Source: Azolla caroliniana | Taxonomy: Eukaryota; Plantae; Polypodiophyta | Direction of reading: 5' to 3' | Assembly: GCA_043228905.1 (NCBI GenBank) | Contig: JBHGNT010000004.1 | Location: forward strand, 8,618,001-8,682,000 | DNA: 64,000 nucleotides | In this document: in pieces, positions 1,503-49,324 of the stretch | How the letters are laid out: the number at the start of each line of letters is the position of its first letter | Position numbering within the stretch: position 1 is the first letter of the stretch | The notes under the pieces: generated by a model | Databases searched by the model: none | What the model was told of the DNA's origin: nothing | The model's input: the letters and a program-made list of their open reading frames with translations, nothing else | Program-made: the position numbers and the translations under genes

Positions 1503-3665
1503 CTATTGTTGTTGATGCTCCGTCTCCAGGTGCTTGTAGTCCCGATGTAGATGATCAAAATCATCGGTCTTCTGCTTTAGCCTTTGGTTGATCTGACGGT
1601 GCGCGCAGTCCTCCCGGTCCTTCTTTTGCCGGAGCTCTTCCTTCAGCCGCTCGATTTCCGTTTCCGCCATCCGCCGCAGCTTGTCTTTTTCCTGTTGCAC
1701 TTTCTCTTTTTCCTCCTTCAGCCGGTCATAAGCATGATGTCCTTTACGTAGGTTTTCCTCTGCACGGCGAAGGTTCTCAGCAGTCTTTCTTAATTCTTCT
1801 TCGGCCACCTTCTTCAAGTTGCGTTCGTGGCTCCGTAATGCTTCTTGTGCGGCAATCTCATCTTGTAATTTCGCAAGCTCTTGGGCTTGCGCCGCATGTT
1901 TCTCCGGGACAGTTTGTGTCTCCGGGGTCTTATTCTTCTGTACATCAACTGGAGTCACCAGTGCTTGGATCTGCGTTGCGGTTAAGGCCATTTTGGCCAT
2001 ATCTCCAGTGATCCGATCCAAGTCTTGGTCGAGGCACCGGATCCTTGACCGGGCCGTCTCCAGTTCATCGGTTATGACTAGCAACTGTTCCGTTTGCGCT
2101 CTTTCCTCCGCCTCTATGCATCCGACTACTCCGACAATTTGGTCTCCTATCCACCGGAGCCATTGGCTGCCGGTGCACTGTTGTTGCGCATGCACGGAGA
2201 GTTGGCTAATGGGTTCACTCGCCGGTGGCTGGTCCCACCGTTCTGCGTCAAGCTGCGCTTCTGGTTTTGCCAGCTGACCACTTTGCCGTTCCGGCTCTGA
2301 GTGTGTTTCGGCTAGTCGCCCCTTGTCTGCTTGTTCTTGGTCGGCTAGGGTGGTTGGCCTTTGTATCTCCGGCTCTTGGGTGACGGGGCTTGCCGGTGCT
2401 GCCTGTTGTGCCGGGACTTTTGTGATCGGTTCCATCCAAACCGGTTCCGGTGCCTCCCTTGGCGTGGGTTGCTTAGCGTGAGTTGTGGGCATTCCATCCT
2501 TCTGTGGGTCCAAACGCTTCTTGCCTGATTCAGCGGTGCTCTTCATCGGCCGCCGCTGGAGGTGCTCCGTGGGTTCTTCCTCCATTTCTTCCGCCTGAGT
2601 CCCGGCATTCATTCTTGCCGCCAGGGTGTCCGTTTCCTGTTGCACCGGTCGGTGGAGTGGGCTCTTCAAGGGCCGTGCCGGTGTCTCCTCACTTGCATCC
2701 ATCGGCCACTTCCGGCTGGCGCGCTCCTTCATCGCCTTCTCTGCTTCGGCAGTCTTCCCCTTAGTAGCCTTGGAGGCCAACAGTTGTTGCCATTTCGAAG
2801 CAGGTTTCGGGGTGCCGTTTGTTGCTCTTCCCCACTTCTTGGTTTGGACGGGCTCGACCGGTGGCGCCAACAAGGTGAGCCATTGTGTCACCGCATGCCA
2901 TATTTTCCGGCCTTCCTTGCCATCCTTTCCTCTTACTATATCAATGGCCGTACACAGCCCGTCGGCGATCAGCACCAACCAATCTACCTTGACCCCTTCG
3001 TACGTTGCGATAATCAAGCCCGCTCGGTTCTGAGGCATGACGGGGGGTCGAGGGTACACGTGGCCGAACTCGTGGAGCACACGGGCAATTTCACGGAATA
3101 ACATATCTTCGCCGCCCTGTGTCCTGTAGCCCTTGCTGGCTAGTGAGTACTCACCGAAATATTTGATGAGTTGCTCGGAGGTAGGATTGTCGATCGTGTA
3201 GATACCTCCCTCCGGAAGGCCTATTAATGCACGGATCGCTTCCTCCGTGATCACCTCTGTGTCGATTTCTTTTATAATCTTTTCGGCCTCCTTGTGTGGC
3301 GCCGCCTCCATGATCGTTAAGAAACCCTCCAGACCGTGTTGTCGTAACCATTTCTTGGCGGTTTCAGACAACGTTTGGCAGTCCATCTCTGCGTCGAGGT
3401 CGGAGAGCGTTGGCGAGGTTTGGTGGTGGGGAGAGTGTGAGAGAGAAAGTTCTAAGGGAGGGGGTTCTCTGTGTGCGAGCTCTCTACAATTGATCTTCGC
3501 GCGTCGCTCCGCGTCTGTTCTCCTTGGTTCGCGATAGGAGAAGGTCTCGATGCGTGGGGGTTTTTCTCTGTGCATCTTGACGCCTTTTTCGAGCCTCCGC
3601 ATGTGCAGGTCGTGTACTATAATAGCATTGTGTGCCATGTGGCGATGGTTTAATGTCCTATTCAT
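1503..3665 (-). CDS. Extra sense ORF downstream of integrase (720 aa): globular N-terminal region, P/Q/E-rich linker, long C-terminal coiled coil; function unknown
   Basis: Long open frame; the TAG at 1503-1505 is followed in frame by more coiled-coil sequence (MAELRQEVDRA...) up to the copia junction at 1395. Confidence 0.7.
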   Translation of the reverse strand: MNRTLNHRHMAHNAIIVHDLHMRRLEKGVKMHREKPPRIETFSYREPRRTDAERRAKINCRELAHREPPPLELSLSHSPHHQTSPTLSDLDAEMDCQTLSETAKKWLRQHGLEGFLTIMEAAPHKEAEKIIKEIDTEVITEEAIRALIGLPEGGIYTIDNPTSEQLIKYFGEYSLASKGYRTQGGEDMLFREIARVLHEFGHVYPRPPVMPQNRAGLIIATYEGVKVDWLVLIADGLCTAIDIVRGKDGKEGRKIWHAVTQWLTLLAPPVEPVQTKKWGRATNGTPKPASKWQQLLASKATKGKTAEAEKAMKERASRKWPMDASEETPARPLKSPLHRPVQQETDTLAARMNAGTQAEEMEEEPTEHLQRRPMKSTAESGKKRLDPQKDGMPTTHAKQPTPREAPEPVWMEPITKVPAQQAAPASPVTQEPEIQRPTTLADQEQADKGRLAETHSEPERQSGQLAKPEAQLDAERWDQPPASEPISQLSVHAQQQCTGSQWLRWIGDQIVGVVGCIEAEERAQTEQLLVITDELETARSRIRCLDQDLDRITGDMAKMALTATQIQALVTPVDVQKNKTPETQTVPEKHAAQAQELAKLQDEIAAQEALRSHERNLKKVAEEELRKTAENLRRAEENLRKGHHAYDRLKEEKEKVQQEKDKLRRMAETEIERLKEELRQKKDREDCAHRQINQRLKQKTDDFDHLHRDYKHLETEHQQQ

Positions 3666-3822
3666 AACTCCTCGTACCTTTTCGACATGCCTCTTTACTC
3701 CTCGTGTGCATGGCTGTTTCCACCACTCCTTTCCATGATTTATTTGATTTGCTCCTTTTTTTTATTTTTCATTTATTTATTTATTTATTTATTTTATTTA
3801 TTTTTTTAACTTACTTGTGTGG

Positions 3823-10799: not shown

Positions 10800-10959
10800 T
10801 TAAGCCTTCTTGCCGGCCGATAACATCGAGCGGAGTCAGAGTCAAAGTTGTCTCGGGTGCGTACCAAGATGCAGACTTGTCAAAAACGACGTCTCGACTT
10901 ACTCGAGATTTTCGAGTCAGGGGTTGTAGCATTTGTACCCCTTTTGCTCCAATGAGTAT
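10800..10959 (-). pseudogene. Copia integrase C-terminal fragment (host of the 10960-22697 element; continues at 22698)
   Basis: RVSRDVVFDKSASWY; removing the insertion restores KCILIGY|SLEQKG. Confidence 0.8.
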
Positions 10960-11691
10960 TGTGAAAGTGTTTTTAGAATTCAAGGTATTGAAGTCTACAA
11001 AAATATAAGGTATGGAGCATTCACACCCGAAGGCCAAGAACACGAGCTAAGGTTTCAAGTATAAGTCAAACAAAAAGCAAGTCACGTGGAGAAAAGTAAA
11101 AGAAGAAAAAAGCGGGCACCAAAATGTAGTCTACAACGAACGCTCATAACTCATTCGTTTGGAAGCCAAATATAATGTGTAAATATGGGTTGGAAAGCTT
11201 GACGAGAGTTATTCATAGGTTTTTAAAGCTCTAAATTTAGAGCTTCGACGAGGGAGATATGACGATTTGAAGATTGTTGTGTCATAGCTAAGAATAGGAG
11301 ATGGAAAAGCTCTAAAAAAAGCGTGGAAAAGAAAGCAAGCGAAACTTATCTACTAGAGGAGAACTTCATATAAAGCAAGAAGAGTGAGGTGGTGAGGAGG
11401 GCTTTTTTCTTGTGATGTTTTCTTGCCTATTCACATAGTGTTGGTTGAGTTGTTATCAATTCATCCTTGTAGGCTTGAGTTTATGTATCTTCTTTCTCTT
11501 GTTTCTATGATCATCACTCCTTATTAATATATCTTTGTAGATTTGGGTTTCTATATCTTCCTTCTCTCTCTTTTCTATCATCATCTCTCTTTTCATTTTG
11601 GCGCCCCAGGGAGGGTCGATCCTTTCTGTATAACGGGAGGAACGGTTGTCCACTAATTGATGGTTGTATCTACCGATTCATCATCAAACTA

Positions 11692-13449
11692 ATGGCAAGA
11701 TATGGAGTTCGCGATGCGACAGATCTACGAAGAGAACTTTTCCAATTGCGTATGGTTTCACCAATGTGCTACCTGGAGTATGAGAAGACGTTTTTGGATA
11801 TATGGTCCACTTGGATTGGACTTGTTGGAGGCGTTGAAGATGTATACTTCAAGATGGAAAGATTCAAAGCAGGGCTAGATCCATATTTTCAATATGAAGT
11901 GCATATGAAGTACCGAAGGTCTTTCCATGATTTGCTTCGAGTATGTCAAAGTTATGATCAACAATTGAAGAAGTTGTTATTCGGTGAAGCATATGGAGTA
12001 TCGGCGTCATATACCATAAATCCAAGCTATAATAATTGTGGATCGGTCATGAGCCAACAACCAGCCTACTTGCAATGTCCGATTCAACAGGTTCCGTCAT
12101 ATCATTATTCTAATTTTTGGAGTTATAATGATGTCTATGAAGGTGATTCCAGAGACAATGAAGAAGAGGTGATGAATGTGGAGTCCCCCCATCTAGTTCA
12201 TGAGGACAACCATGATATAAAGAATGATGATGTGAAAGACGAATCTAAGGAGATTGTTATGAGAAGCGATGTTATGGATGGTGATGCCAATGTACATCAT
12301 GTTGAGGACATTATTACAACAAGCGATATGGTGGTTGATGATGAATATGTGCAAGATGAAATGGAAGATATGACAAAAGAAGTTGTTGATGGTGAAGTAC
12401 CCACAACGAAGTTGCAAGATGAAGAAGGTAACCTAGAAGTGATAGCTGGAGATTGGCTTTTGGAGATCAATGCGTGTAAGGAAGCATTGGTAAGTGCCAA
12501 GTTGCAGTGTATGAAGGTGTTCGTGCAAGATTTGTGTTTTGGATTTGCATTGAGTGGCAACAAAGTTATGTGGGCATCAACTCTTCAACAACAATTTGAC
12601 CAAGAGCCAAGAGATTTACTTGTAATGCATGATTGGAGTATCATTAACTTATCACCATCAAAGGATCCACCACAACTAATCAAACGTATAAAGGAGAAGG
12701 AATCATCTATCAATAATGGCAATCAAGAAGAGGAAAGCATAACAATTGATGAATCTTCATGGGATAGGGAAAACAAATCATTCCACATGGTGTCTAAGGA
12801 GGAAGAAGAAGTCATTGAAGAGAAAAGCATTATCACCTTGGAGAAGATGATTTCAAGCTATATCCAAGGAGAAGAGCATCTAAGGTTTAGTTCTTTTCTT
12901 TTTGAGTTTCCAAAATTACTCATAAATGTCTATTCACATATAAAAGGAGAAGATTGCTTCAAAGACCTTATCAAATTGAAGGTACCAATTGCCCAAACTC
13001 TTCAAGAATCTAAGGTTGTGCAAAAGATAGATCATAAAGCATTGTTACAAGAGAGTTTCATTTATCATATGGAGAATTTGAAGTTTGTCTCACTTATTGT
13101 GGTTGTTCCAAAGGAGAAAGACGTCAACTTCCAACCCTTGAATGATTCAACCAAACGAGTTTTATTTTTGCTTCCTTTTCGAGATGAGATTCTAGATGAA
13201 ATGGTCATACATACAAAACAAGGTAATGTGGAGAATGTGGTGTGCCAAGAAGAAAGTCATGTTGATGAAGCAAAGATCGACATAATTCAAAATATGACAA
13301 TTCTGACAAGTCTCGAAGCTTTGAAGGTATTTGTACAAAAGGTTCGCTCGCTCGAAAGATTTATTCATATGTTAACATGCTTACTTCTATCAAGAGTTAT
13401 GTATCACATAGACCTACTTCTGTTTGGAAAGTTGATGAAGATATACTAA
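11692..13449 (+). CDS. 585-aa ORF: gag capsid-like N-terminus, acidic linker, and RT remnants lacking the catalytic core
   Basis: ERFKAGLDPYFQYEV gag-like motif; VSLIVVVPKE..VNFQPLNDSTKR.LFLLPFRDEILDEM (RT N-part) joined to VVCQEESHVDEAKIDII...LEALKVFV (RT C-part); no YxDD. Confidence 0.75.
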   Translation: MARYGVRDATDLRRELFQLRMVSPMCYLEYEKTFLDIWSTWIGLVGGVEDVYFKMERFKAGLDPYFQYEVHMKYRRSFHDLLRVCQSYDQQLKKLLFGEAYGVSASYTINPSYNNCGSVMSQQPAYLQCPIQQVPSYHYSNFWSYNDVYEGDSRDNEEEVMNVESPHLVHEDNHDIKNDDVKDESKEIVMRSDVMDGDANVHHVEDIITTSDMVVDDEYVQDEMEDMTKEVVDGEVPTTKLQDEEGNLEVIAGDWLLEINACKEALVSAKLQCMKVFVQDLCFGFALSGNKVMWASTLQQQFDQEPRDLLVMHDWSIINLSPSKDPPQLIKRIKEKESSINNGNQEEESITIDESSWDRENKSFHMVSKEEEEVIEEKSIITLEKMISSYIQGEEHLRFSSFLFEFPKLLINVYSHIKGEDCFKDLIKLKVPIAQTLQESKVVQKIDHKALLQESFIYHMENLKFVSLIVVVPKEKDVNFQPLNDSTKRVLFLLPFRDEILDEMVIHTKQGNVENVVCQEESHVDEAKIDIIQNMTILTSLEALKVFVQKVRSLERFIHMLTCLLLSRVMYHIDLLLFGKLMKIY

Positions 13450-14289
13450 TTGTTGTAACCTCTTTCTTTGTGTTGACAAGGAGAAAGATGGTGATGGCAA
13501 TTGTCAATGTGTATGTGTGTGTGTTTAGAAGTGTGAGGTTTTTCCTATCAACTAGCGGGGGTTTTACTCACATAGTTTGTTTCTTTTCTATTTATTTTCT
13601 CCTTCTTTGTCTATAGCCATGAATAAGGCGAAGGAGAACCTTTAGTTTTATTAGTAGCTTAGGGTTCACCATAAAGGGTTCACCAAAAAGCAAGGGGGAG
13701 GGCTAAATGTGAAAGTGTTTTTAGAATTCAAGGTATTGAAGTCTAGGTCGAAGCACGCTACGGTGTACCAGAAAAGTACTGTTTTTGGCCACAAAAATTG
13801 TCAGTACTTTCAATACTGTTAGTACTGAATAATTCAGAAAAGAAATTAGAGAAAAAGAAAATCGATTTTGGAGAGTGGGGTGACTGTAGTACAAGTGTCA
13901 TTTACTGTAGAAGGAGTGGGGGGAACACGTGAGGAGATGTTCTTCCATTTTGGGGGCTATTTTCCCCTCACGTCGATTTTGGCGCTTCCCCTCACGTCGT
14001 TTTGGCGATTCCCCTCATACTGCTCTTCCTCTATCCCTCTGAGCTTTTCATCACAAACATCCATGTCACGTTTCTGATTTTCCTTCAATCTAAATCTCAG
14101 ACATCCATGTCTGGTTGGAGAGTTTGCGTTGAGGATTTCTGATTTTTTTAGGGTTTCTGTTTTTGTTAGGTTTTGGTTGAGGTACAGAGACTGTTCTAAG
14201 GGTTCAGGTAGCAGCCAATAGCCACTTCTTCGACAACGACTTTCTTACTTCCACCGATTGCAGTTGATGTCGTGGTGATTTGGGGCTTT

Positions 14290-14822
14290 TTCCACCAAAT
14301 CGAGGTTGCATTGGAGGTTCCTTCCACCAAATCGAGGCGGCATATCCAACGCTCCCTCCACCATTGGAGGTTCCTTCCACCAAATCGAGGCTGCATATCC
14401 AACGCTCCCTCCACCATTGGAGGTTCCTTCCATCCATTTTTTTATTTTCAGTACTAAAATGTTTCATTTCTTCATATTTCAGTACTAAAATTTTAGAATT
14501 GACATTTGTCATATTTGATATGTAATTCTATTGTTTGAAACAAAATATTTCTCACTTTGCAGGCCACATTTAAAAACATTTGATTGTGTTTTCTTGGTTG
14601 AGTCTATATATCCACGCTCCCTCCACCATTGGAGGTTCCTTCCATCCATTTTTTTATTTTCAGTACTAAAATGTTTCATTTCTTCATATTTCAGTACTAA
14701 ATTTTTAGAATTGACATTTGTCATATTTGATATGTAATTCTAATGTTTGAAACAAAATATTTCTCACTTTGCAGACCACGTTTAAAAACATTTGATTGTG
14801 TTTTCTTGGTTGAGTCTATATA
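14290..14822. repeat. Tandem repeats upstream of the transposase: ~58-bp units (14290-14430) and a ~210-bp duplication (14400-14822)
   Basis: ttccaccaaatcgagg...cgctccctccaccattggaggttcc is repeated; the AT-rich block starting catccatttttttattttcagtactaaaatg occurs twice. Confidence 0.85.
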
Positions 14823-14876
14823 ACATTAACTACTTTCGCAAGACACTTAATTTTTGTGGATAAATCTAGTGACCGA

Positions 14877-17800
14877 ATGGGGGTTCCTAACGAGAGTGAG
14901 TTGTCAAGTAACTCATGCATATCTGAAAGGACTAAGAGACGAGTGGTTCTTCACATAGTCCGTTATTTGGTAGAAATAACGAAGAGATTTAGTGAAGAGG
15001 ATCGTAGGGATATTATCTGTAGAGTGTTACACCATCAAAGTTTGAATGAAGACATGGAGAGAATAAAATTTAGGGACCAATGTGTTTCAGAAGAGATTGT
15101 GGAGTCTATGAAGTCATCCCTAGACTTAGTGAAAGGTGTAGAGAGCTTAGACAAACTTGCTGCAAAGAGGGCAGCCCTACACATGGTTGTGAACGGTGCG
15201 AGAGAAAAAAAATATAGTGATAGTAAAGTTGCCTTAGCCCTGGGTATTCAAAGAAGGAACTTGAGGAAACATCGCCGAAATATACACACAAGCAAATTCA
15301 AGTGGCTGGGGTCGGGACGTAGACAACGATGTGATGCCTTATCTCAAGAGATTATTGAGAAAGTGGATTCATTTTGGGCCAAAAATACGCGTGTCTCACC
15401 AAATAAGAAGGACGCGTGTAGACAACGAATAAGTCAGGGTAAGTACCAGATTCACCCTAGACACTTCTTGGAGATGATAGAGGTATTCCATTTTTTTATA
15501 TCAATTCACATTCCATAACTTTGTGTTTTGACCAAGTGTATATTAATGTTTGCTATATATATTGGTTGATGTAGGCTGAATTGTACATGAACTTTAAAGA
15601 CCAACATCCAAGCTTGACTGTCGGATTCTGCAAGTTCCAAGGTTTGAAACCATTTTATGTTAGAAAATTAAATGAGAGGAATACATGTTGTTGTGTGTAC
15701 CATGTGAAGATGGACATGTTAAGGCTAGCAGTGAATGCAATGCGTACTGATTCTAAGGGTATACACGGGGAATTATGTGTCTGCACTTGTGAGATTTGTA
15801 GACCAAATGGGGAGGATAATAGGTGTAATGCACGAAACATGACTTATGCATCCGTTTCTGAGCTATGGAGGTCTTGTGTTTGTGAAAAAGAACCATCATG
15901 TGAATGGCATCGTCGTACATGTCTATTAAGAACATGTAAGGTTTGTCCGCTACCATTATTTTGTAGGCAGGAGCTTGATATGGGAAATAATCATATCGTG
16001 AAATGGAAATATTTGGAGTATGTGACTGAAAATATTGGCAAGGGAGTTGTAACTAAGCGTATCAAGGAAGTATATAAGGAGACATGTGCTGCTACCCTTG
16101 TCTCAGAATTTAAGAAACAACTTGGGGAGTTTATTCCACATAACTTCCGGAGTTATTGGCAAAATTCACAATTCAAGGAATGTATTAATAACTTACCAAT
16201 GGGTGTCATTGTATCTGTTATTGATTTTGCAGAAAACTATACATTTAAAGTTCAAAATGAGGTTCAATCAATGCATTGGTACAATGATCAATGTACAATA
16301 CTTGTACATATTTGCTATTGGAGGCAAGACGGTGAGTTACATAAGAAATCAATATTTTACATTTTAGATGATAAAAAGCATGATACACTATTTGTTCAAC
16401 ATTGTTTTAAGCTTCACCATGCAGATTTATTTTCTCTAGGGTTAACCTTTAACCGTCATTGGGTTTGGTCTGATGGTGCTGCCTCGCAGTTTAAGGCGGC
16501 ACGATCGTTCTACTTTATCGCCAGGTAATTTTTAATCCATATGTTTAGTACTTATCATGCAATGTGTAAGGAAGTAATTCTTGTGTTAGTGGATGCATAC
16601 TAATTATGTTTGTAACTATTAACAAACAGTACTAGTCACATGGATGCATACTAATTATGTTTGTAACTATTCGAATCTTGCACTTGTGAATGGATGCATG
16701 CATACTAATTTTGTTTGTATTATGTTGTACTAAGTAACTTTTAATCCATGTGAAGTGTTCTCCATAGACACATTGTACTATGTTGTGTTTACAGAAGGAT
16801 GTAAAGTACTCATCTTGTACTCATAGTATTGTCCGTCCTTAAGAGAATTGTACTAATTATCTTTTTATCCATGTGAAGTGTTCTCCATAGACACATTGTA
16901 CTATGTTGTGTGTATAGAAGGATGTAAAGTACTCATCTTGTACTTAGAGTATTGTCCGTCCTTAAGGGAATTGTACTAATTATGTTTTAATCCATGTGAA
17001 GGGTTCTCCATATACACATTGTACTATGTTGTGTGTTGGTTTTGTACTATGTTGTGTTTACAAAAGGATGTAAAGTACTCATCTTGTACTCATAGTATTG
17101 TCCATCCTTAAGAGAATTGTACTAAGTATCGATTAATCCATGTGAAGGGTTCTCCATAGACACATTGTACTATGTTGTGTGTTGGTTCTGTACTATGTTG
17201 TGTTTACAAAAGGATGTAAAGTACTCATCTTGTACTTATAGTATTGTCCGTCCTTAAGAGAATTGTACTAATTATGTTTTAATCCATGTGAAGGGTTCTC
17301 CATAGACACATTGTACTATGTTGTGTGTTGTATCTGTACTATGTTGTGTTTACAGGAGGATGTAAAGTACTCATCTTGTACTCATAGTATTGTCCGTCCT
17401 TAAGAGAATTGTACTAAATCAGTATTTACTCATGTTGTACTCATAGTATTGTACTCATCTTGTACTCATCTTTTAAACACACTGTGTGGTACTGATTATC
17501 TATTAATCAATGTTTAGCGTTCTCCATGAACACACTATATTGTACTATGTGTTGTATCTATACTAAATTAGTGTTTATTGGGGGATGTAAAGTACATGTC
17601 TTGTAGTACTAATGATCTTCTAAGGAGGGTTGTGTTCTCCGTGGACACATTGTATTGTACTATCCGATATTGAACATTTTGTACTATTTATCTGTTAATA
17701 CATGTAGAGTGCTTTCCATGAACTCATTGTACTATACTTTGTGCTATATCCATACTAAGTTAGTATTAAATGGATGCCAGGTACTGTTGGTCGACAACAT

Positions 17801-18577
17801 AGTACTATTTATCTTTTAATAAGTGTAGAGTGTTCTCAATGGATACGTTGTGCTATGCTTTGTTTTGTATTTGTACTAAATCAGTATTAATGGAAGTGTA
17901 GTACTCTCAATTGACAACATAGTACTAATTTTGTTGGAAACCTGAGATACCAAAGCAGGTATTTCTCCTTATTCAATATTCGTATGCAATGGAATTACTT
18001 CGGGTCTGGACATGGAAAAGGAGAGCATGATGGCGCGGGGGCTGTGATCAAACATGCCCTTACAAGTGAGCAGTTGGATAATAATGGCGCTAAGTTACAA
18101 AATGCACATGATGTTGTTCAGTGGCTAACATGGAAGATGTCAAATGATGGTAAGAACAAATTGTTTGTTGAAGTTCGCGCTGATGAGGTCGATAGAACTA
18201 AATCATATGGTTGTAAAACCGTGAAAGGCACACACAACACCCATTGTGTGTTAGGGTTTAGCCGCAAGGACACAACCCAATTGTTACTCCGTAGTTTATC
18301 ATGCTTTTGTTCCATGTGTCTAGATGAAGCTTGGGATAAATGCATCAACCTATCAATCGTGGAGCCCTGGAAGCTGCAAAAGCTTGAGCCTGAACGACAA
18401 GATGATATTGAAGAGGATGTGCATTCAAACGATATTGTATACTACAACCAAAATCAAGACTTGGCAGTTTTATTGGAAGTTGGAGATCATTTTGCAGTGC
18501 TCAAATATTCTCAGAATTACACAAGGAGTACTAATCCCGAACAATGTACCACTGACTTAGTCAAATTACACAATTAG
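14877..18577 (+). CDS. Spliced DDD-type transposase (exons 14877-15482, 15575-16524, 17959-18577); 3' end possibly truncated near 18500; true start may be upstream
   Basis: GT-AG introns 15483-15574 and 16525-17958 both join the ORFs in frame; motifs IDFAENY, DDKKHD, WSDGAASQFK, WNYFGSGHGKGEHDGAG; Cys-rich segments TCCCVYH and SCFCSMC. Confidence 0.85.
16740..17420. repeat. About five ~120-140-bp GTAC-rich tandem units inside transposase intron 2
   Basis: atccatgtgaag(t/g)gttctccatagacacattgtactatgttgtg...gatgtaaagtactcatcttgtact...gtccttaagagaattgtactaa repeated. Confidence 0.9.
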
Positions 18578-19387
18578 TACTAATCCTGAACAATGTACTA
18601 CTCAACAATGTACCACTGACTTAGTCAAATTACACAATTAGTACTAATCCTACAAAATGTACTACTCACTTATTTTCTAGATTACTGATCTAGTACTAAT
18701 AAGGTACAAAACTAGTACTAATAAGGAACAAAGTACTACTTAGTTCCCAAATTACAAAACTAGTATTAATCATGAGCAATGTACTAGTAACTTAGTTCAC
18801 AAAGTACAGAACTAGTACTAATCATGAACCATGTAGTACTTACTAAGTACTAATCCAACAAATGTAGATTGGTATTTTGCACACAAGTAATACTAAACAT
18901 GATATGTGTTCTACACACCTAGTTACATAACTTGTACTAATTACACCAACAGTATTAATCTTGAACAGTATTAGTACTAAACCTGATATGTGTTTGACAC
19001 ACCTCATTTCCAAATTACAATAATTGTACTATTATTCAGCAATTTACTATACACCTTGTTCCCAAATTACATTACTAGTACTAATTCCCAAGTTACACAA
19101 ACAATACTAACAGTCAACAGTGTACAATAAGTATAGTGTTTACTAAACTAATACTAGGCAAGTTGCAATATAGATTGGACGATGTTGTACCTGGTTCCCT
19201 TTTAGTACTACTAATTCTGGAAAATATCCCTTCAACTACACATACCAATTATATATTAAGAGTAATGCCAATACTAACCCACATAATTAGGGTTCCACAT
19301 AATAGTTGTTAGAGATTACACTAAATTTGAAGTATGAATTGTGGCATACACTAGTTCTAGTCCAAATGTTAATTGACATCATATAAA

Positions 19388-20749
19388 TCAAACAATAGAA
19401 TAGTAGAGCCACATACCGTACGGGTGTACTTTTAAACCCCAAGCATAGTACCACTCAGCCGCAATTGTAGTTTTACAGTCCATACATGTATTCTCTTTCT
19501 CAAAATGATACTTAGCACATAGCACATGATATGTGTGCAAGCATGGTGTAATCACAACATCCATAGCCTCCAGCTTGAATCCGAGGCCACAAAATATACA
19601 CCTGGAAGATTGCAAACACAAGTTATAATATATTAGCTGCTCACTTATTTATACCAGAGAAGTAGAAATAAATAACTTTTAAAGCCAATACCGTGATATA
19701 GCTATACTAATAATGGTACTTTCTATACCACTTGGGTGCTCAATTACAGATGGAAACAAAGTATCAAAACCATTTTGTTTTAAATCCTGCATCAAGCATG
19801 CAAGGTTCTCAGAATGCAACTTTAAGGTTGACAACTTATTATCTATTTCTTCATGTGCATTCCTGCAAGTATCAAGGTCTCTCATCTGTGAACCTAATTG
19901 AGTGCCCATATTGTTTAGCTCTTTCTTCAACTCCTCTTTCAACACCTCACTTTCTGAATTTTGGATTGTCGATGCAATCCATTCATATGTAGTTTTTATT
20001 GAAGAAAATTTCTTTTTTGCCTGTATCTCAGCTGATTTAACTGCTTCCAAATCAACAAGTAGTGTTTGTATTCTTGAGCTCATAGAAGCTATGCAACCGG
20101 CCATCATCTGTTCATGCTTTTCAATCATTGTGGCCCGTACCTTTGCCTCTAGAACTTGGTGGACAGGTGTTATAGCTAGAATATCCACATGAGAGGTTCC
20201 AGATGACTTCAAGCCAGTGTTGGTACTGGAGGACCCTTTGTAATGTTCTGACCAGTGCCGATTAAAATCTTCCCAATTTACGTCAATGCCACCTTGAACT
20301 TCACATGCAAAAGCACGTGCAAAAACAGTACCCACCTCATTGTTAGTGATTTGATTTGTATCATAAACATGTTCGTATCTCGTCTTCAATAAATTCGTGT
20401 ATTCCCTCTTCAAACCACTTATGTGGAATCCTCGCCTTGTGTCGGGATGTGCTGACCCCCAGGTTTTTAACAACCACTCTCTCAGCTCTGGATAAATGTC
20501 AGGTCGTGCTCGAAGGAAATAATTCCATCCAAGAGGTGTGTCTCGACTGATGGAGTGGTACATCTTGTTTCTCTGTGTTGATGAATTCATCACCCTTTCT
20601 CTTGTGGGTGTCTTCTTGCTTTCTTTCATGGGTGTCCTTCTTCCTTCCTTCACTGGTGTCTTCACTTTCTCTTTCATCAATGTCTTCTTTATGGGTGTCC
20701 TTCTCGTCATTGTCCTAGTCAACACAATTCTCAGGGAATGAATATGCAT
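19388..20749 (-). CDS. Second, convergent gene of the DNA transposon: basic TP-repeat N-terminus, helical domain, coiled coil, C-terminal RING-H2 finger
   Basis: 356-aa ORF joined in frame by a 90-bp GT-AG intron (19602-19691; CG|G TGT gives R-C) to CIFC-x15-CLHTYHVLC-x10-CMDC (C3H2C3). Confidence 0.75.
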
Positions 20750-21722
20750 GTACTAGAAGAAAACTCAAACAATTACCATCAACACATAGCAAATCATCAC
20801 ATTGCATGTACAAACCATGTCAAACACACAATAACCCTAAATAGTCGGAAAAAAACTCATCCATGTCAAACACACAGACAATAAAAACAGACGGATAGGA
20901 AAGTCAAAGAAAACGAAAACATTGTAAATCATCATAGCCAACTCCATCACATCGCATGTACAAGCCATGTCAAACACACAAAAACCCAAAATAGTCGGAA
21001 AAACACTCATCCATGTCAAACTCACACAAAATAAAACAGATGAACAGGAAACAAGAACAAAACGAAAACATAGCAACTCATCATAGCCAACTCCATTTAC
21101 GTTGCATGTACAAACATGTCTAACACACAACCACCTCGATCAAAATATTGTCATACATTTTTAAAAGAAACACAGAGAAACACAGAGAAAACAAAAACAT
21201 ACCAGTTGGGCATGCAACACATAGACTATGAATAATCAAACCCTAAAAATGGCCATACACATGCAAATAAAAAACAGACAGACAGGAAACATTCAGAAAA
21301 AGAAAACATACCAGTTGGGCATGCAACATAGACAATACCTGGAGGTCGTACAACTTGCAGAGGTACCACACCGTGTTGATTTCGACAAACGAGGCTGCTG
21401 CAGAGGACACAAACGAGCATAGACAGAGGAGACAAACGAGCATACACAAGGAAGGAAAATCAACAACACATACAACGAGCAGGGGAAACAAAAATCTCTG
21501 CGTATACAGAGTTCAGAGATCGAACCTGGCACAGAGGGGAACACAAGAACAGCTACGCGGGGAAACAGAGAATCGAAGGTGGAGTGAGAGAGAGAAACAG
21601 AAAGAAAGAAAGAAACAGAGCTTCGAAGGTGGAGTGAGAGAGAGAAAGAGAGAGATAGACCTGTAATAGATATGTCGTCTTTCTTTAACTTTCTGCCACT
21701 GTCTGTCTGACAACTTCAAGAC

Positions 21723-21726
<4 letters not shown>

Positions 21727-21770
<44 letters not shown>

Positions 21771-21821
21771 CCAATTGACACGTTCGACTACCCATACCAG
21801 AGAGAGAGAGAGAGAGAGAGA
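21727..21821. repeat. (GA)n microsatellites in the right subterminal region of the DNA transposon
   Basis: About (GA)20 and (GA)11 runs. Confidence 0.9.
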
Positions 21822-22697
21822 TACTGAGACTGACCAACGGTCACAATGGATACCTTCTCCAGGTGTGCTTTCGTACAACTCTACCTAGGAGACTGGGGCA
21901 ACAATTAATGTATTACATATGGCCTAGGGACATTTCGAGTGTGACGTACAATATCTTTGTGCATTCGAGTGTGACGCAATGAATTTTTTTTTTTTTTTTA
22001 AACTTATTTACAATTTTTAATGTTTATTTTCTTCTTCGATTTAGTACTAAATTTTTGGCCAAAAGTTGGTACACCGTAGCATGCTTCGACCCGTCTACAA
22101 AAATATAAGGTATGGAGCATTCACACCCGAAGGCCAAGAACACGAGCTAAGGTTTCAAGTATAAGTCAAACAAAAAGCAAGTCACGTGGAGAAAAGTAAA
22201 AGAAGAAAAAAGCGGGCACCAAAATGTAGTCTACAACGAACGCTCATAACTCATTCGTTTGGAAGCCAAATATAATGTGTAAATATGTGTTGGAAAGCTT
22301 GTGACGAGAGCTATCCATAGGTTTTTAAAGCTCTAAATTTAGAGCTTCGACGAGGGAGATATGACGATTTGAAGATTGTTGTGTCATAGCTAAGAATAGG
22401 AGATGGAAAAGCTCTAAAAAAAGCGTGGAAAAGAAAGCAAGCGAAACTTATCTACTAGAGGAGAACTTCATATAAAGCAAGAAGAGTGAGGTGGTGAGGA
22501 GGGCTTTTTTCTTGTGATGTTTTCTTGCCTATTCACATAGTGTTGGTTGAGTTGTTATCAATTCATCCTTGTAGGCTTGAGTTTATGTATCTTCTTTCTC
22601 TTGTTTCTATGATCATCACTCCTTATTAATATATCTTTGTAGATTTGGGTTTCTATATCTTCCTTCTCTCTCTTTTCTATCATCATCTCTCTTTTCA

Positions 22698-43931: not shown

Positions 43932-46900
43932 TGTTGGAGACGAGGAAGGTCGTCTTTGCGGAAGATCAAGAAGCATTCGATTCTTGCTGAATACCTGCGT
44001 ATGACAGATTGTAGGTCGTGCACAGAGAGAGAGAGAGAGGGAGAGACACAAAAGACTTCTTATTCCATAAAGCAATAATACAACATCCAACCTTACAAAA
44101 AGGTTGCAAGGTCACTATATATAGTGACCGACTTAGGGCAACTACCCTTTATGCTAATTACATAAATGGCCAAAACGAGATAGTGTGAATACGTCCATTA
44201 TACACATGTATTCGACACTCCCCCGTAATGGGCGTATACATGGGTTATCTAAGATTACAGGTATAGACTTAGGTTCTCGGACATATCAGCTTTGTTCGAG
44301 TCGGCAGGGTCCGAAGGCAGAAGACCGAACTGGTCGGGTCGGAACAGTTGAAGCCGATCATTAAGGAACTGATGTCGGTTGTCGGGAACCATCCTGCTCT
44401 GTGTCCGGCTCTAACCGGACTGGTTTGTCGTTACGCCCATCTGATGCCGAAGAGACCGAAAACGGTCTGCCGAAAGACACTTGGTCATTCCATCTGCGAC
44501 ATTGTCGGTTGTGGATATTTTCTCTAGACCGATTTTCCCTGAAATGACGCAGTCCCGAACGAAGTGATATCGAACGTCGATATGTTTGGAGGCGTTGTGG
44601 TGAACCGGATTTTTCGACAAGGCAACAGCACCTTGACTGTCGCTGTAGACAACTGGAGCCGAGTCATGGTCGACTTGTCGAAACGTGTGCGCCAGCCGAC
44701 CGAGCCACAAAGCTTCTTTTGCTGCGTCGGACGCAGCTACATATTCTGCTTCGGTCGTTGAAGTCGCTGTGCACTCCTGAAGTTTCGACTTCCACGAGAT
44801 TGCTCCATTGCCGAATTTGAAGCAGTATCCGGTTGTTGATTTCCGACTGTCTATACAGCCGGCGAAGTCCGAGTCGGTGTAACCGACTACGCCTGAGGTT
44901 CGGTCCGGACCGAAGAGAATGCCATGGTCTTTTGTGCCAGCCAGATATCTGAACACATGCTTGACTGCGTTCCAATGCGATCGGCCAGGATTGTGCATAA
45001 ATCTGCTAACAACTCCTACGACATGAGAAATATCAGGCCGTGTCGCGACCATTAGGTACATAAGGGAGCCGACTGCCGGTGCATACGGTACCGACTTCAT
45101 ATCTTCCCCCTCCGGGCCGGATGTCGGGCAGTCTCGCTGAGAGAGCCGAAGATTCATGGGGAGCGGGGTTGAAGCAGATTTGGCTGATTGCATGTTGAAG
45201 CGTTCCAAGACACGTCCGATATAGTCGGTCTGAGACAAAAAAAGATGTCGGTTATCGCGATGCCGACTAATCTTCATGCCAAGGATGTGTCGTGCCGGAC
45301 CGAGGTCCTTCATGGCAAACTTCAACCGCAGTTGCCGAATGAGATCGGCAAGTTCGCCCGCGTGGCGTCCAGAAATTAGCATGTCGTCCACGTAAATGAT
45401 GAGGAAGATGGGTGATCCATCTTGAGCTGGTTTGGTGAAGAGACAATGGTCCTCATCGCTTTTTGAGAAGCCGATCGATTGGATGAAGTCGTCGAACTTC
45501 TTGTACCATTGTCGCGGTGCCTGTTTGAGGCCGTATAGACTCTTCCTGAGTCGGCAGACTAGATGTTCTTGGCCAGTCGCCACGAAGCCTTTTGGCTGCT
45601 CCATATAAATTTCCTCTTCAAGATCACCATGGAGGAAGGCTGTTTTGACATCTAGCTGAATCAGCTCCAGGTTGTCGGCTGCCACTACGCCGAGTAGAAA
45701 ACGAAGGGTTGTCATTTTCACCACTGGTGAAAAAATCTCGTCGAAGTCGACGCCATATTCTTGTCGGAAGCCCTTCGCAACTAATCTGGCCTTGTACTTT
45801 GGGGTGGTCGAATCAGACGTCTCTTTTAGTCGATAAACCCACTTGCAAGGAAGAGCACGTCGGTTCCTGGGTAATTCGACCAGATCCCAAGTCTTGTTTG
45901 CCCGAATGGAGTGCATTTCCGACTCCATCGCCAGATGCCAGGTGGCTGAATCGACAGATGTCGATGCTGCTTCGTAAGACGTCGGTTCGCCGGCGTCGGT
46001 GAAGAAAATTCCAGGAGAGTATCTCTCCGGAGGTTGCGACAGTCTCTCGGATCGGCGAGGTATGATTGGACTGGTCGCATCGGGTATCGAGGTCGGATGG
46101 TCCGAAAGAGAGTCATTCGGCTGTGCCGAGTCGGAGCTGTCCGAGTCGGGAGTGTAAGGTTCAGCTACCCGTGAAGCTGACCGTGTGTTGAGAGCGGGGC
46201 CTTCTTGAAGGGTCGGCACATCGGAAAATGTTACCCTTCGGACTTCGATCGGTTTTTCGACTGATGGATTCATAGCCGACTCGTTGAACACAACGTCCGA
46301 ACTTCGAACGATTTGTCTGCGTTCGGGGTCCCAGAGTCGGTATCCCATTTCGCCGTCGGATCCATATCCAAGGAAAATGCATTTCCTGGACCGAGGTGCA
46401 AGTTTTCGGCGATCATCTTTCGGAATAAGGGCGTACGCCTCGCATCCGAAGATCCTCAGCTTGTCGTAATTCGGCTTACTGCCGATCCATAGTTCCTGAG
46501 GAATTTGAAGTCCTAGAGGTCTACTTGGCGACATATTGATTATGTGCACTGCCGTGAGTAGAGCCTCTGCCCAGAAGCCATCCGACAGTCGGGAGTGTTG
46601 GAGCATGGAAACTATCCGTTCTTGGATTGTCCGATTCATTCGTTCGGCAATCCCGTTTTGCTCCGGACTGTGTGGTGCCGTAAATTCACGTCGGATGCCG
46701 CGTTGTCGGCAGAATTTGACGAATTCTTCAGATTTGAACTCTCCCCCATTATCGGTCCGAAAGCATTTCAGTTTTCGGTCGGTTTGATTTTCTACCATAG
46801 CGAGCCAATCGGAGAAGATCGAGAAGACACGATCTTTGGTGCGAATTGGATAAGCCCACACCTTTCGAGTCGAATCGTCAATAAAACTGACGAAGTAAGA

Positions 46901-49324
46901 GGCACCGCCAAGAGACTGATGCGGCATTGGGCCACAGACGTCCGAGTGGACTAAATCGAGAGGTCTCGTTTCTCTTGGTGCTGATGTCGGGTGTGATGCG
47001 GCTGCTTGTTTGCCATACTGGCAATGCTCGCAGAATTGATGGTCCGAGAAGGAGAGTTTGGGGATGTATCCGGCTCTAGATAGGTGCGTGATGCCGGCCT
47101 TGCTGAGGTGTCCTAACCTTCGGTGCCATAATGATGACACAGGAATATCCACCAAAAACAGGTTACCCTCTCTGAGCGTAACATGTAACGGATACAGTGA
47201 GTGTATCTTGGGTCCTCTAGCAAGCAGGAGGTTCCCCCTGTGGAGTGTCCACCCTCCCGAAGAAAAACCGGCACGAATGCCGTCTTCATCTAGTTGTCCG
47301 ACTGAGATCAATGGCCTTGTGAGCTCGGGTACATGTCGGACATTGTGGAGTACAAGTGCAGAGCCACCTGCAAGGTTGAGCTCCACTGTGCCGATTCCGA
47401 CGATGTCACAGTGTTGTGAGTTGCCGACTCGAACTGAGTCGGAGTGACGGATCGTATATTGCCGAAATTGGGATCGATGAGGAGTCACGTGAAATGACGC
47501 GCCCGAATCCAAGAGCCATGTGCTCGATTCTTCAGTCGTGAGTAGAACTTCTGATCCGACTGGATTTTCTATTGATAGTATATTCGGGTCGTCCGGTAGT
47601 ACATCAGCTGAGAAGCTGACGTAATTGATCTCCTCATGCCGGCCACTCTTCTTGTTGTTCTTGTTCTTGAGTGCGCGGCAGTCGGCTTTGATGTGTCCGG
47701 GTTTCTTGCAATAGTTGCAGATTCGGTTATCCCGTGACTGGCTCCGTCTTCGCTGATTGTTCGGCGGCCGTGAGGAATCTCTTCCTCGTATGTTCGATCG
47801 GTCTGTCGAACCTTGTACTACGTAAGCGTCGTCTGTTGAGTCTTTGGCGAAAGACTTTCTCCGAGCTGCTTCGGTCAGGATTGCGCTTGTGACTTCGGAG
47901 TATTTAACAGCCGTGGTTGACGCGTTGCACACGGTTGTGACGAAAGTTTCCCATGATGAGGGAAGGCTGCTCATGAGTATCATTGCTCTGAGTTCATCCT
48001 CGATTGCCGTCCCCTGTGACGAGATTTGGGAGCTTATGCTTTCGTACTCATTGAGGTGTGCTTGAACCGAGTCGGATTCTTTCATCCGCAAGTTGTAGAG
48101 GCGCCGGATTAGAAACATCTTCGTTGCGGCGACCTTCTTTTCGTAAGTGTCCGACAGTGTTTTCCACAGTTCGAATGCTGTCGTACACGATTGCACCGTA
48201 AAATATACCGATTCCGATAGGTGCATCCGAATCGTGGCGCGGACGATTCTGTCCAGCTTCTGCCACTCAATTGGTTTGTATCCTTCTGGAGGTTCTTCAT
48301 TTTCGATGGGATCGATTTGCCCCTTGACTATGAGATAGTCCTGCATTTGCTCCTTCCAGAAGTTAAAGTTCGATCCATCGAACTTTCGTAGACTCATTTC
48401 TGACGAGCCGGATGTTGATGCCATCAAATTTGGTATCAAATTTGGTTTCGGTTGACGAAGCTCGGTTCGGAGTTGACTACGAATCTTGTTGGAGTGCAGC
48501 CTGTTGGCTCACCCGATATCGTTCTAGTCGGATTTGAACCCGAGTCGGTTCGGCTTCGGATATATGTATTGTTGAACTTGCTCGAATTGACTCCGGTAAC
48601 TTGAGGGACAGAACCGACTGGTCTTCCCGAATGTCGCCGAGTCGGAGTGAGCCCGGTTCGCTTCGGATATATATGCCGAATACCGATTATTGAAACCGAT
48701 TATCTGGACCGATTCGGCTTCGGGTGACTGCAGCGACGAGAGAGACGGATCCGACTGATCCTCCCGAATGTCGATCAGCCAGATGAAGCACGAATTTGGG
48801 TTGTTGTCAAAGTTGCACAAGGGGATTTCACCTCGAGCGGTTACGATCACAAGGGACAGAGTACAACCTGCTGGCTTACTCCAAGCAAGGGGATCTAACG
48901 CGATGAGGTGCAAACCTCGTTTTCGTTCTTCTTCTCTCTTTCTTCGAATGACGCGAATACTGTGCAGGCCGTGATGAAGTGAAGAACCGAATGCTGTGCA
49001 GGCCGTGATGACGGCCGAACCTCTGCTCTGATACCAGATGTTGGAGACGAGGAAGGTCGTCTTTGCGGAAGATCAAGAAGCATTCGATTCTTGCTGAATA
49101 CCTGCGTATGACAGATTGTAGGTCGTGCACAGAGAGAGAGAGAGAGGGAGACACACAAAAGACTTCTTATTCCATAAAGCAATAATACAACATCCAACCT
49201 TACAAAAAGGTTGCAAGGTCACTATATATAGTGACCGACTTAGGGCAACTACCCTTTATGCTAATTACATAAATGGCCAAAACGAGATAGTGTGAATACG
49301 TCCATTATACACATGTATTCGACA
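43932..49324 (-). mobile_element. Intact, very young Ty1/copia element (5393 bp), TSD GAGCG
   Basis: 286-bp LTRs 43932-44217 and 49039-49324 with one mismatch seen; TSD at 43927-43931 and 49325-49329; iMet PBS 49025-49036; PPT 44218-44224. Confidence 0.97.
44411..48439 (-). CDS. Complete copia Gag-Pol polyprotein (gag, CCHC, PR, INT, RT, RH), Tnt1-like; likely ATG at 48424
   Basis: CNYCKKPGHIKADC, WLLDSGAS, WHRRLGH...CEHC, VHSDVCGP, RTDNGGEF, NGIAERMN, IYVDDM, YTDSDFAG, KHIDVRYHF. Confidence 0.97.
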   Translation of the reverse strand: MIPNLMASTSGSSEMSLRKFDGSNFNFWKEQMQDYLIVKGQIDPIENEEPPEGYKPIEWQKLDRIVRATIRMHLSESVYFTVQSCTTAFELWKTLSDTYEKKVAATKMFLIRRLYNLRMKESDSVQAHLNEYESISSQISSQGTAIEDELRAMILMSSLPSSWETFVTTVCNASTTAVKYSEVTSAILTEAARRKSFAKDSTDDAYVVQGSTDRSNIRGRDSSRPPNNQRRRSQSRDNRICNYCKKPGHIKADCRALKNKNNKKSGRHEEINYVSFSADVLPDDPNILSIENPVGSEVLLTTEESSTWLLDSGASFHVTPHRSQFRQYTIRHSDSVRVGNSQHCDIVGIGTVELNLAGGSALVLHNVRHVPELTRPLISVGQLDEDGIRAGFSSGGWTLHRGNLLLARGPKIHSLYPLHVTLREGNLFLVDIPVSSLWHRRLGHLSKAGITHLSRAGYIPKLSFSDHQFCEHCQYGKQAAASHPTSAPRETRPLDLVHSDVCGPMPHQSLGGASYFVSFIDDSTRKVWAYPIRTKDRVFSIFSDWLAMVENQTDRKLKCFRTDNGGEFKSEEFVKFCRQRGIRREFTAPHSPEQNGIAERMNRTIQERIVSMLQHSRLSDGFWAEALLTAVHIINMSPSRPLGLQIPQELWIGSKPNYDKLRIFGCEAYALIPKDDRRKLAPRSRKCIFLGYGSDGEMGYRLWDPERRQIVRSSDVVFNESAMNPSVEKPIEVRRVTFSDVPTLQEGPALNTRSASRVAEPYTPDSDSSDSAQPNDSLSDHPTSIPDATSPIIPRRSERLSQPPERYSPGIFFTDAGEPTSYEAASTSVDSATWHLAMESEMHSIRANKTWDLVELPRNRRALPCKWVYRLKETSDSTTPKYKARLVAKGFRQEYGVDFDEIFSPVVKMTTLRFLLGVVAADNLELIQLDVKTAFLHGDLEEEIYMEQPKGFVATGQEHLVCRLRKSLYGLKQAPRQWYKKFDDFIQSIGFSKSDEDHCLFTKPAQDGSPIFLIIYVDDMLISGRHAGELADLIRQLRLKFAMKDLGPARHILGMKISRHRDNRHLFLSQTDYIGRVLERFNMQSAKSASTPLPMNLRLSQRDCPTSGPEGEDMKSVPYAPAVGSLMYLMVATRPDISHVVGVVSRFMHNPGRSHWNAVKHVFRYLAGTKDHGILFGPDRTSGVVGYTDSDFAGCIDSRKSTTGYCFKFGNGAISWKSKLQECTATSTTEAEYVAASDAAKEALWLGRLAHTFRQVDHDSAPVVYSDSQGAVALSKNPVHHNASKHIDVRYHFVRDCVISGKIGLEKISTTDNVADGMTKCLSADRFRSLRHQMGVTTNQSG

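Follow-up and report, generated by a model that had tools for sequence, protein, structure and literature searches.

Why would a DNA transposon carry a gene for a RING finger protein? The question is raised by a stretch of 64,000 nucleotides of the Azolla caroliniana genome (contig JBHGNT010000004.1, positions 8,618,001 to 8,682,000; hereafter, the window), in which an element of 8348 bp encodes a transposase and, convergently, a spliced partner protein with a RING-H2 domain. The original prediction, made from the letters of the window, described a Sola-like transposon with a dedicated E3 ubiquitin ligase. Our analysis indicates that the partner is very probably a dedicated accessory gene, and that the element in the window is a recently inserted, internally deleted derivative; what the partner does is a separate matter, on which we offer a tentative proposal.

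A dedicated accessory gene

The partner gene is encoded on the minus strand, where 20710-19692 is joined to 19601 over a GT-AG intron:

19692..20710, minus strand: partner exon 1, encoding a basic disordered N-terminus, an orphan domain (about residues 55-157) and a helical hairpin (residues 183-313)
19602..19691, minus strand: partner intron 1, 90 bp, skipped by 9 poly-A reads of run X21 (related subfamily) and an annotated junction in the fern protein P0111
19388..19601, minus strand: partner exon 2, RING-H2 (C3H2C3), with a conserved splice donor after 19417 and read-through to a stop at 19388-19390

The RING has the full set of eight C3H2C3 ligands, and the same ligand pattern, with RING spacing, is found in P0111, P0130 and P0142. 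In the structure model, the disordered basic start is followed by the orphan domain (predicted local distance difference test score, pLDDT, of about 85-90) and a long helical hairpin. Fold searches with the whole partner as the query returned generic coiled coils only. A link between the orphan domain and the open reading frames (ORFs) of retroelements in the window was considered and rejected, with no match found.

Searches with exon 1 yielded 8 relatives at 36-95% identity out of 1022 candidates, and a profile search of 1.84 billion representatives returned 43 matches (clusters); among 10 of these that were looked up, the 3 that are named are all hypothetical proteins of Adiantum nelumboides. 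No relatives were found in the viral and prokaryotic collections (0 of 34 and 0 of 32 pattern matches). The architecture persists over long distances: P0130 (25% identity over 351 amino acids, E=4.5e-19) and P0142 have their domains in the same sequence, with an identity of about 25% or lower, and P0111, from an annotated genome, shares both the domain order and the coil-to-RING junction.

The partner is present in at least 12 metagenome loci (locus counts, here and below, refer to the matches listed). Eight loci are long enough to include the RING exon, and in 7 of them it comes after exon 1, separated by an identically placed intron of about 90 bp; the exception, L011, is interrupted by unrelated DNA. 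In L008 (80% amino acid identity) and L001 (61%), a transposase gene is convergent to the partner, and in L003 a terminal inverted repeat (TIR) lies upstream of the partner in a different flank. The remaining loci are too short or broken to reveal linkage; L008 and L011 extend far enough upstream yet lack a TIR there.

Across six pairs, exon 1 has a ratio of nonsynonymous to synonymous substitution rates (dN/dS) of 0.28-0.43 and the RING one of 0.13-0.21, whereas the basic N-terminus is under weaker constraint (0.33-1.13). Reads from runs X21 and X22 over both genes run in the predicted sense; being rare and mostly less than 95% alike, they derive from relatives in organism C. The contigs from X19 and X20 show no splicing and may represent DNA.

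The relatives, the linkage, the dN/dS values and the spliced reads thus bear out the prediction of a dedicated, spliced gene under selection: the RING gene is neither limited to one copy nor neutral, unspliced or recognizable as a host gene fragment. Capture of a host gene, with the partner travelling as a passenger in the manner of Pack-elements, appears highly improbable. RING-H2 genes are plentiful in plants, the seven-exon structure found in a sister subfamily (see below) resembles that of a cellular gene, and the relatives in Adiantum as well as P0130 and P0142 are seen without genomic context; against capture, selection is evident between element copies up to a synonymous divergence (dS) of about 0.75, the profile search returned only the 43 matches, its named members being hypothetical proteins, and we found no characterised host gene family that matches the partner.

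The transposase and the element boundaries

The transposase gene occupies the opposite strand:

14877..15482, plus strand: transposase exon 1 (start codon inferred), aligning with P0035 residues 79-295; the exon 1/2 junction is present in 6 poly-A reads of a relative
15575..16524, plus strand: transposase exon 2, with a Cys/His-rich region and catalytic D419 and D502
16525..17958, plus strand: transposase intron 2, placed by homology, with a 123/146-bp minisatellite and 11 AGTACT motifs
17959..18517, plus strand: transposase exon 3, containing catalytic D543; the homology stops at 18517, with read-through to a stop at 18577

As originally proposed, the three exons (14877-15482, 15575-16524 and 17959-18577) form, when joined over GT-AG introns, a 724-codon open frame followed by a stop, and the coordinates given for the junctions 15482/15575, 16524/17959 and 19692/19601 are all correct. 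The poly-A reads of relatives contain the first and the third of these junctions; 16524/17959 was in none of the poly-A reads examined. Intron 1 is supported by the reads from run X23, which diverge from the window at 15477 and go on as exon 2. At the site of intron 2, relatives are uninterrupted, and in P0020 an in-frame insert occupies this position.

A search with exon 2 produced 33 long relatives out of 342 candidates, the closest named ones coming from Calypogeia and Klebsormidium. D419, D502 and D543 fall in columns that are invariant across all 27 aligned relatives, which had been chosen for length >555 amino acids. The context of the triad matches, by eye, the published Sola2 alignment (PMC3627910 Additional file 10; citations refer throughout to the accessible parts of the papers), with the motif series DF.ENY / SDG..SQ.K / HGK..DG.G..K around the three catalytic Asp residues; an upstream Cys/His module, a 4-bp target site duplication (TSD) and short TIRs are likewise common to both. 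The differences are the second, RING-encoding gene, the TSD (GTCT), which is not AT-rich, and the BAH-like tail predicted for full-length relatives (see below); the published alignment leaves the tails out. In the model of the relative P0017 (pLDDT 86), the top structural match is the IstA transposase (Z 9.8, root-mean-square deviation, rmsd, 3.2, 156 aligned residues), followed by integrases, the Z scores with IstA and integrase cores being 9.0-9.8, as expected of an RNase H / DDE-type fold. No Pfam family scored above its cut-off with the transposase alignment. Judged by its sequence motifs, the transposase belongs to Sola2, which sharpens the original Sola-like assignment.

The ends of the element are as follows:

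13741..13744, no strand: left TSD copy, GTCT; a single GTCT is present at the empty site in the 5' long terminal repeat (LTR)
13745..13770, plus strand: left TIR, 24/26 match, first base unlike that of the right end
13771..14876, plus strand: non-coding DNA at the left, containing tandem repeats of 53 bp and 212 bp as well as 7 AGTACT motifs
20711..22066, minus strand: non-coding DNA at the right, comprising the promoter and 5' region of the partner, with repeats of 150 bp and runs of GA; partly common to L007, L010 and L012
22067..22092, minus strand: right TIR, starting GGG; L003 has a related end upstream of its partner gene, in another flank
22093..22096, no strand: right TSD copy, GTCT

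The two 26-bp TIRs (13745-13770 and 22067-22092) are identical at 24 of 26 bases, the outermost base being A at the left end and G at the right end. Sola2 termini typically begin with 5'-GRG; the right end and the L003 end start with GGG, and the left end with AGG. A retroelement (about 10958-22697) carries the insertion in its 3' LTR, and the uninterrupted counterpart in its 5' LTR (about 10958-11595) contains only one GTCT (10993-10996), which fixes both borders of the element and the 4-bp duplication, confirming the ends originally predicted. The sister LTRs differ by 3 mismatches per 634 aligned bases; hence the insertion is young. Sola elements are defined by a DDD transposase and a 4-bp TSD (PMC10741241; for the TSD, also PMC3627910), and have TIRs of 11-1124 bp and lengths mostly of 2-9 kb (PMC10741241), ranges that include the values found here. 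Membership in Kolobok was rejected, given that a TTAA TSD is required there.

The LTR that hosts the element is itself transcribed in organism C (window 13690-13745), and 11 X22 reads carry the empty-site sequence after 13745. The inner part of this young retroelement holds only a 656-amino-acid ORF (11479-13449), without a Pfam match, and no pol; the retroelement is likely non-autonomous.

An internal deletion truncates both genes

Two further features lie between the genes:

18517..18527, no strand: deletion breakpoint; the junction is common to L008, and the X8 and X15 contigs depart here
18518..19416, minus strand: AGTACT-rich spacer, a putative remnant of partner intron 2, with 13.4 motifs/kb

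The original prediction took both the transposase and the partner as complete, and on this point it has to be revised, both being truncated. Homology to the transposase relatives ceases at 18517, and 25 of the 27 aligned relatives have a tail of about 100 amino acids past this point; a fourth transposase exon was looked for in the window and not found. In DNA runs, 10 X8 contigs and 6 X15 contigs depart from the window at the same position, and the X8 consensus continues as the tail with which L001 ends.

On the partner side, the splice donor at 19417/19416 is conserved in the RING exon of the window and of 6/6 loci that reach it. In the L001-type subfamily, it leads to five further exons and a predicted protein of about 790 amino acids with an acidic tail (19% Asp+Glu); the L001 model meets stops after residue 748, behind a run of C. 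An alternative reading of the exons past the RING in L001, L003 and L006 as a third gene was dropped because all six junctions of the L001 model are GT-AG and in frame. Exons 3-5 of the tail have identical lengths and GT-AG borders in 3/3 loci (L001, L003, L006), with dN/dS of 0.48-0.74 for the tail, and in the Adiantum protein P0113 similar motifs are recognizable by eye after the coil. Thus, the prediction of a spliced gene ending in a complete RING stands with respect to the splicing and the eight ligands, but in the sister subfamily the gene model runs on for about 390 acidic residues; the distant relatives P0130 and P0142 stop 17-22 residues past the RING. What was lost at the breakpoint is the transposase tail and, judging from the sister subfamily, partner exons 3-7. 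The motif density of the spacer equals that of intron 2 in L001, L003 and L006 (13.0-16.4/kb), so that a single deletion accounts for both losses.

With respect to the donor, the X22 depth of 0.11 in the bin 19297-19423 fits two reads ending at 19417; this value is under the listing threshold and is not proof. The last exon of the partner differs between subfamilies by tandem peptide repeats (L001 4075-4602, L003 6065-6760, L006 3174-3746), which is also reported for the variable regions of VANC proteins, the anti-silencing factors of VANDAL transposons.

The transposase tail is beta-rich (P0017 residues 501-624; L001 5459-5764, minus strand). Seven of the 50 structural matches of P0017 map to it, and all seven are BAH-containing proteins: EBS (Z 6.7, rmsd 3.4, 88 aligned residues) and MTA1, DIM2, DNMT1, ORC1, AIPP3 and ORC1b (Z 6.1-6.5). 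These matches are modest, with Z <8 and the domain modelled within the whole P0017; a Foldseek comparison with the Polybromo BAH domain gave E=0.027 (probability 0.92), and no sequence match of the tail to BAH was found. Full-length transposases of this clade are therefore predicted, from the structure models, to end in a BAH-like domain.

Lacking the transposase tail and the acidic exons, the window copy is either functional as shortened or owes its movement to a relative of full length. L008 has the same junction at a dS of about 0.2 to the window, with dN/dS of 0.30 for transposase exon 3 and 0.42 for the partner. Selection may thus have favoured the shortened two-gene form as such, and the picture originally drawn is in part rescued.

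AGTACT arrays and a possible anti-silencing function

The hexamer AGTACT occurs 31 times in the 8348-bp element, compared to 26 times in the other 55,652 bp of the window, and is absent from 2.9 kb of tested coding region. For AGTACTAA, 23 of the 33 matches in the window are inside the element, against a chance expectation of 1.5 per window. AGTACT ranks first or second among the enriched hexamers both in the spacer of the window and in the second intron of L001 and L006; the spacer cannot be aligned to L001, though the motif is kept in both, and, across subfamilies, the motif persists where the introns have stopped aligning. The densest arrays lie deep in introns, away from the element ends. 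The AGTACT cluster at 37.8-41 kb falls within remains of retroelements and lacks a TIR.

Arrays of a short motif within non-coding tandem repeats are a feature shared with VANC-type systems. VANDAL elements also have an accessory gene, with the motif arrayed via tandem repeats in introns and other non-coding parts and none in coding sequence, and the VANC21 motif, YAGTATTAY, resembles AGTACTAA (PMC5735166). Because the arrays lie outside coding DNA, are kept across subfamilies and have this VANC21-like layout, we read the partner as a motif-binding, anti-silencing E3 ligase, a proposal that we hold tentatively, at somewhat below an even chance. The partner is not a member of VANC, although it may work like one: VANDALs are Mutator-type, whereas the transposase in the window is of the Sola2 type, no family match connects the partner with VANC, and no RING is described for VANC in the accessible part of PMC5735166. 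Furthermore, binding and demethylation have been demonstrated for VANC (PMC5735166), whereas motif binding by the partner is a deduction.

Cut-and-paste transposition is established for DDD transposases. Under the proposed scheme, the Sola2 transposase would excise and reinsert the element, and the BAH-like tail of the full-length transposases might read chromatin. The orphan domain of the partner would bind the AGTACT arrays in the non-coding DNA of the element, and the RING would recruit a ubiquitin-conjugating enzyme (E2); ubiquitination would then remove or modify silencing proteins at the arrays, with reduced silencing of the element as the presumed outcome.

Several observations weigh against this proposal. 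The RING of the window copy scores under the Pfam cut-offs (zf-RING_2, E=5.5e-5, 23.8 bits, cut-off 27.3); P0130 is above the cut-off for zf-RING_11 (27.3 vs 27). Interaction of RINGs with E2 typically involves a Trp four residues after ligand 6, a Pro after ligand 7 and a linchpin Arg, in place of which the RING in the window has His, Met and Lys; some RINGs are active without the Trp. Among the reads, none connects the RING exon with exon 3. The motif is also found directly inside both TIRs (13775-13826 and 22043), so that the transposase could be the motif reader, and is sparse at the partner's own promoter (1 in 1.4 kb); moreover, the AGTACT counts are inflated by tandem duplication. CG is depleted in the element at least as strongly as in the adjacent retroelements (0.10-0.61 vs 0.51-1.16), which gives no sign of escape from methylation. 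Finally, expression is very low (17 and 10 of 12.6 million reads) and comes from relatives rather than the window copy.

The location of the motif next to the TIRs would be accommodated if the partner were a cofactor or regulator of transposition, like maize MURB, that binds the transposase and either aids integration or ubiquitinates the transposase to limit its level, with AGTACT serving as transposase sites. The two genes occur together in three elements, and binding between MURA and MURB has been demonstrated (PMC12973397). We nevertheless consider this rather unlikely, given the position of the densest arrays in introns, distant from the ends, and the rarity of the partner: the 26 transposase relatives P0009-P0034 are seen without genomic context, and the partner is far less common in databases (43 clusters), so that many related transposases may work without it.

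The degenerate E2-contact residues could instead signify that the RING is a structural zinc module or pseudo-ligase, and that DNA binding together with the acidic tail, whose exon structure is preserved as described above, displaces histones with no involvement of ubiquitin. This appears unlikely: the RING is the most constrained segment of the protein, well below the tail in dN/dS, and the tail is missing in P0130 and P0142 as well as in the lineage of the window and L008, where the partner still shows constraint. We lean slightly towards the RING being an active E3.

If the anti-silencing proposal is combined with the predicted transposase tail, Sola2 elements of seed-free plants might pair a transposase tipped with a BAH-like reader of histone marks with an AGTACT-docking E3 that strips silencing, a system convergent with VANC and ubiquitin-based as in some viruses; this full picture is doubtful at present. 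Transposons are known to encode few proteins that counter silencing, and the way in which factors of the VANC type erase it is an open question in the field; a RING partner under selection, together with a candidate motif, is a concrete case that can be tested, in a superfamily and a plant lineage that have received little study. Should the proposal be correct, a transposon turns the ubiquitin system on its own chromatin, and the partner would be a motif-addressed tool. The deletion lineage, which has recently moved without the predicted reader tail and the acidic tail, provides a natural comparison for the role of those parts.

Comparison with other two-gene transposons

The original prediction took Sola elements to be described with the transposase only; this does not hold. 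The Sola2-Fanzor elements of dictyostelids encode a Sola2 transposase and a second gene, and in some families most of the transposase is deleted (PMC3627910). They resemble the element in the window in all three respects, the transposase type, the second gene and the existence of deleted forms, but their cargo is a TnpB-like nuclease and their TSDs are AT-rich, in contrast to the spliced RING protein described here. Sola1-1_Ec32 of Ectocarpus, like the element in the window, has an accessory gene on the opposite strand, proposed to bind and modify the element's own sequence (PMC12477816); it differs in being a Sola1 element of 21.5 kb that encodes ParB plus a DNA methyltransferase, and the main text of PMC12477816 makes no mention of RING, BAH or ubiquitin. 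Outside Sola, MuDR, with MURA and MURB, and Kolobok are also TIR transposons with a separately encoded accessory protein (PMC12973397, PMC9587614); these belong to other superfamilies, RING is absent from the main texts of both papers, and the TSD of Kolobok is TTAA. Among active plant clusters, Sola is rare (PMC12973397).

A literature search, mainly of open papers and without Repbase, found neither a RING partner nor a BAH tail described for any Sola element. Thus, second genes in Sola elements are already known, and the novelty here is the RING partner; to the extent of this search, the architecture has not been catalogued before, as the original prediction had surmised.

Other features of the window

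Two additional loci in the window merit a mention. At 1503-3761 (minus strand), a 752-amino-acid ORF with a coiled-coil end and no Pfam match adjoins remains of a Gypsy pol, and is likely a retroelement accessory gene. The region 43932-49324 contains an apparently intact Copia element, with a 1365-amino-acid ORF (44411-48508, minus strand) flanked by 286-bp repeats that are 99.7% identical.

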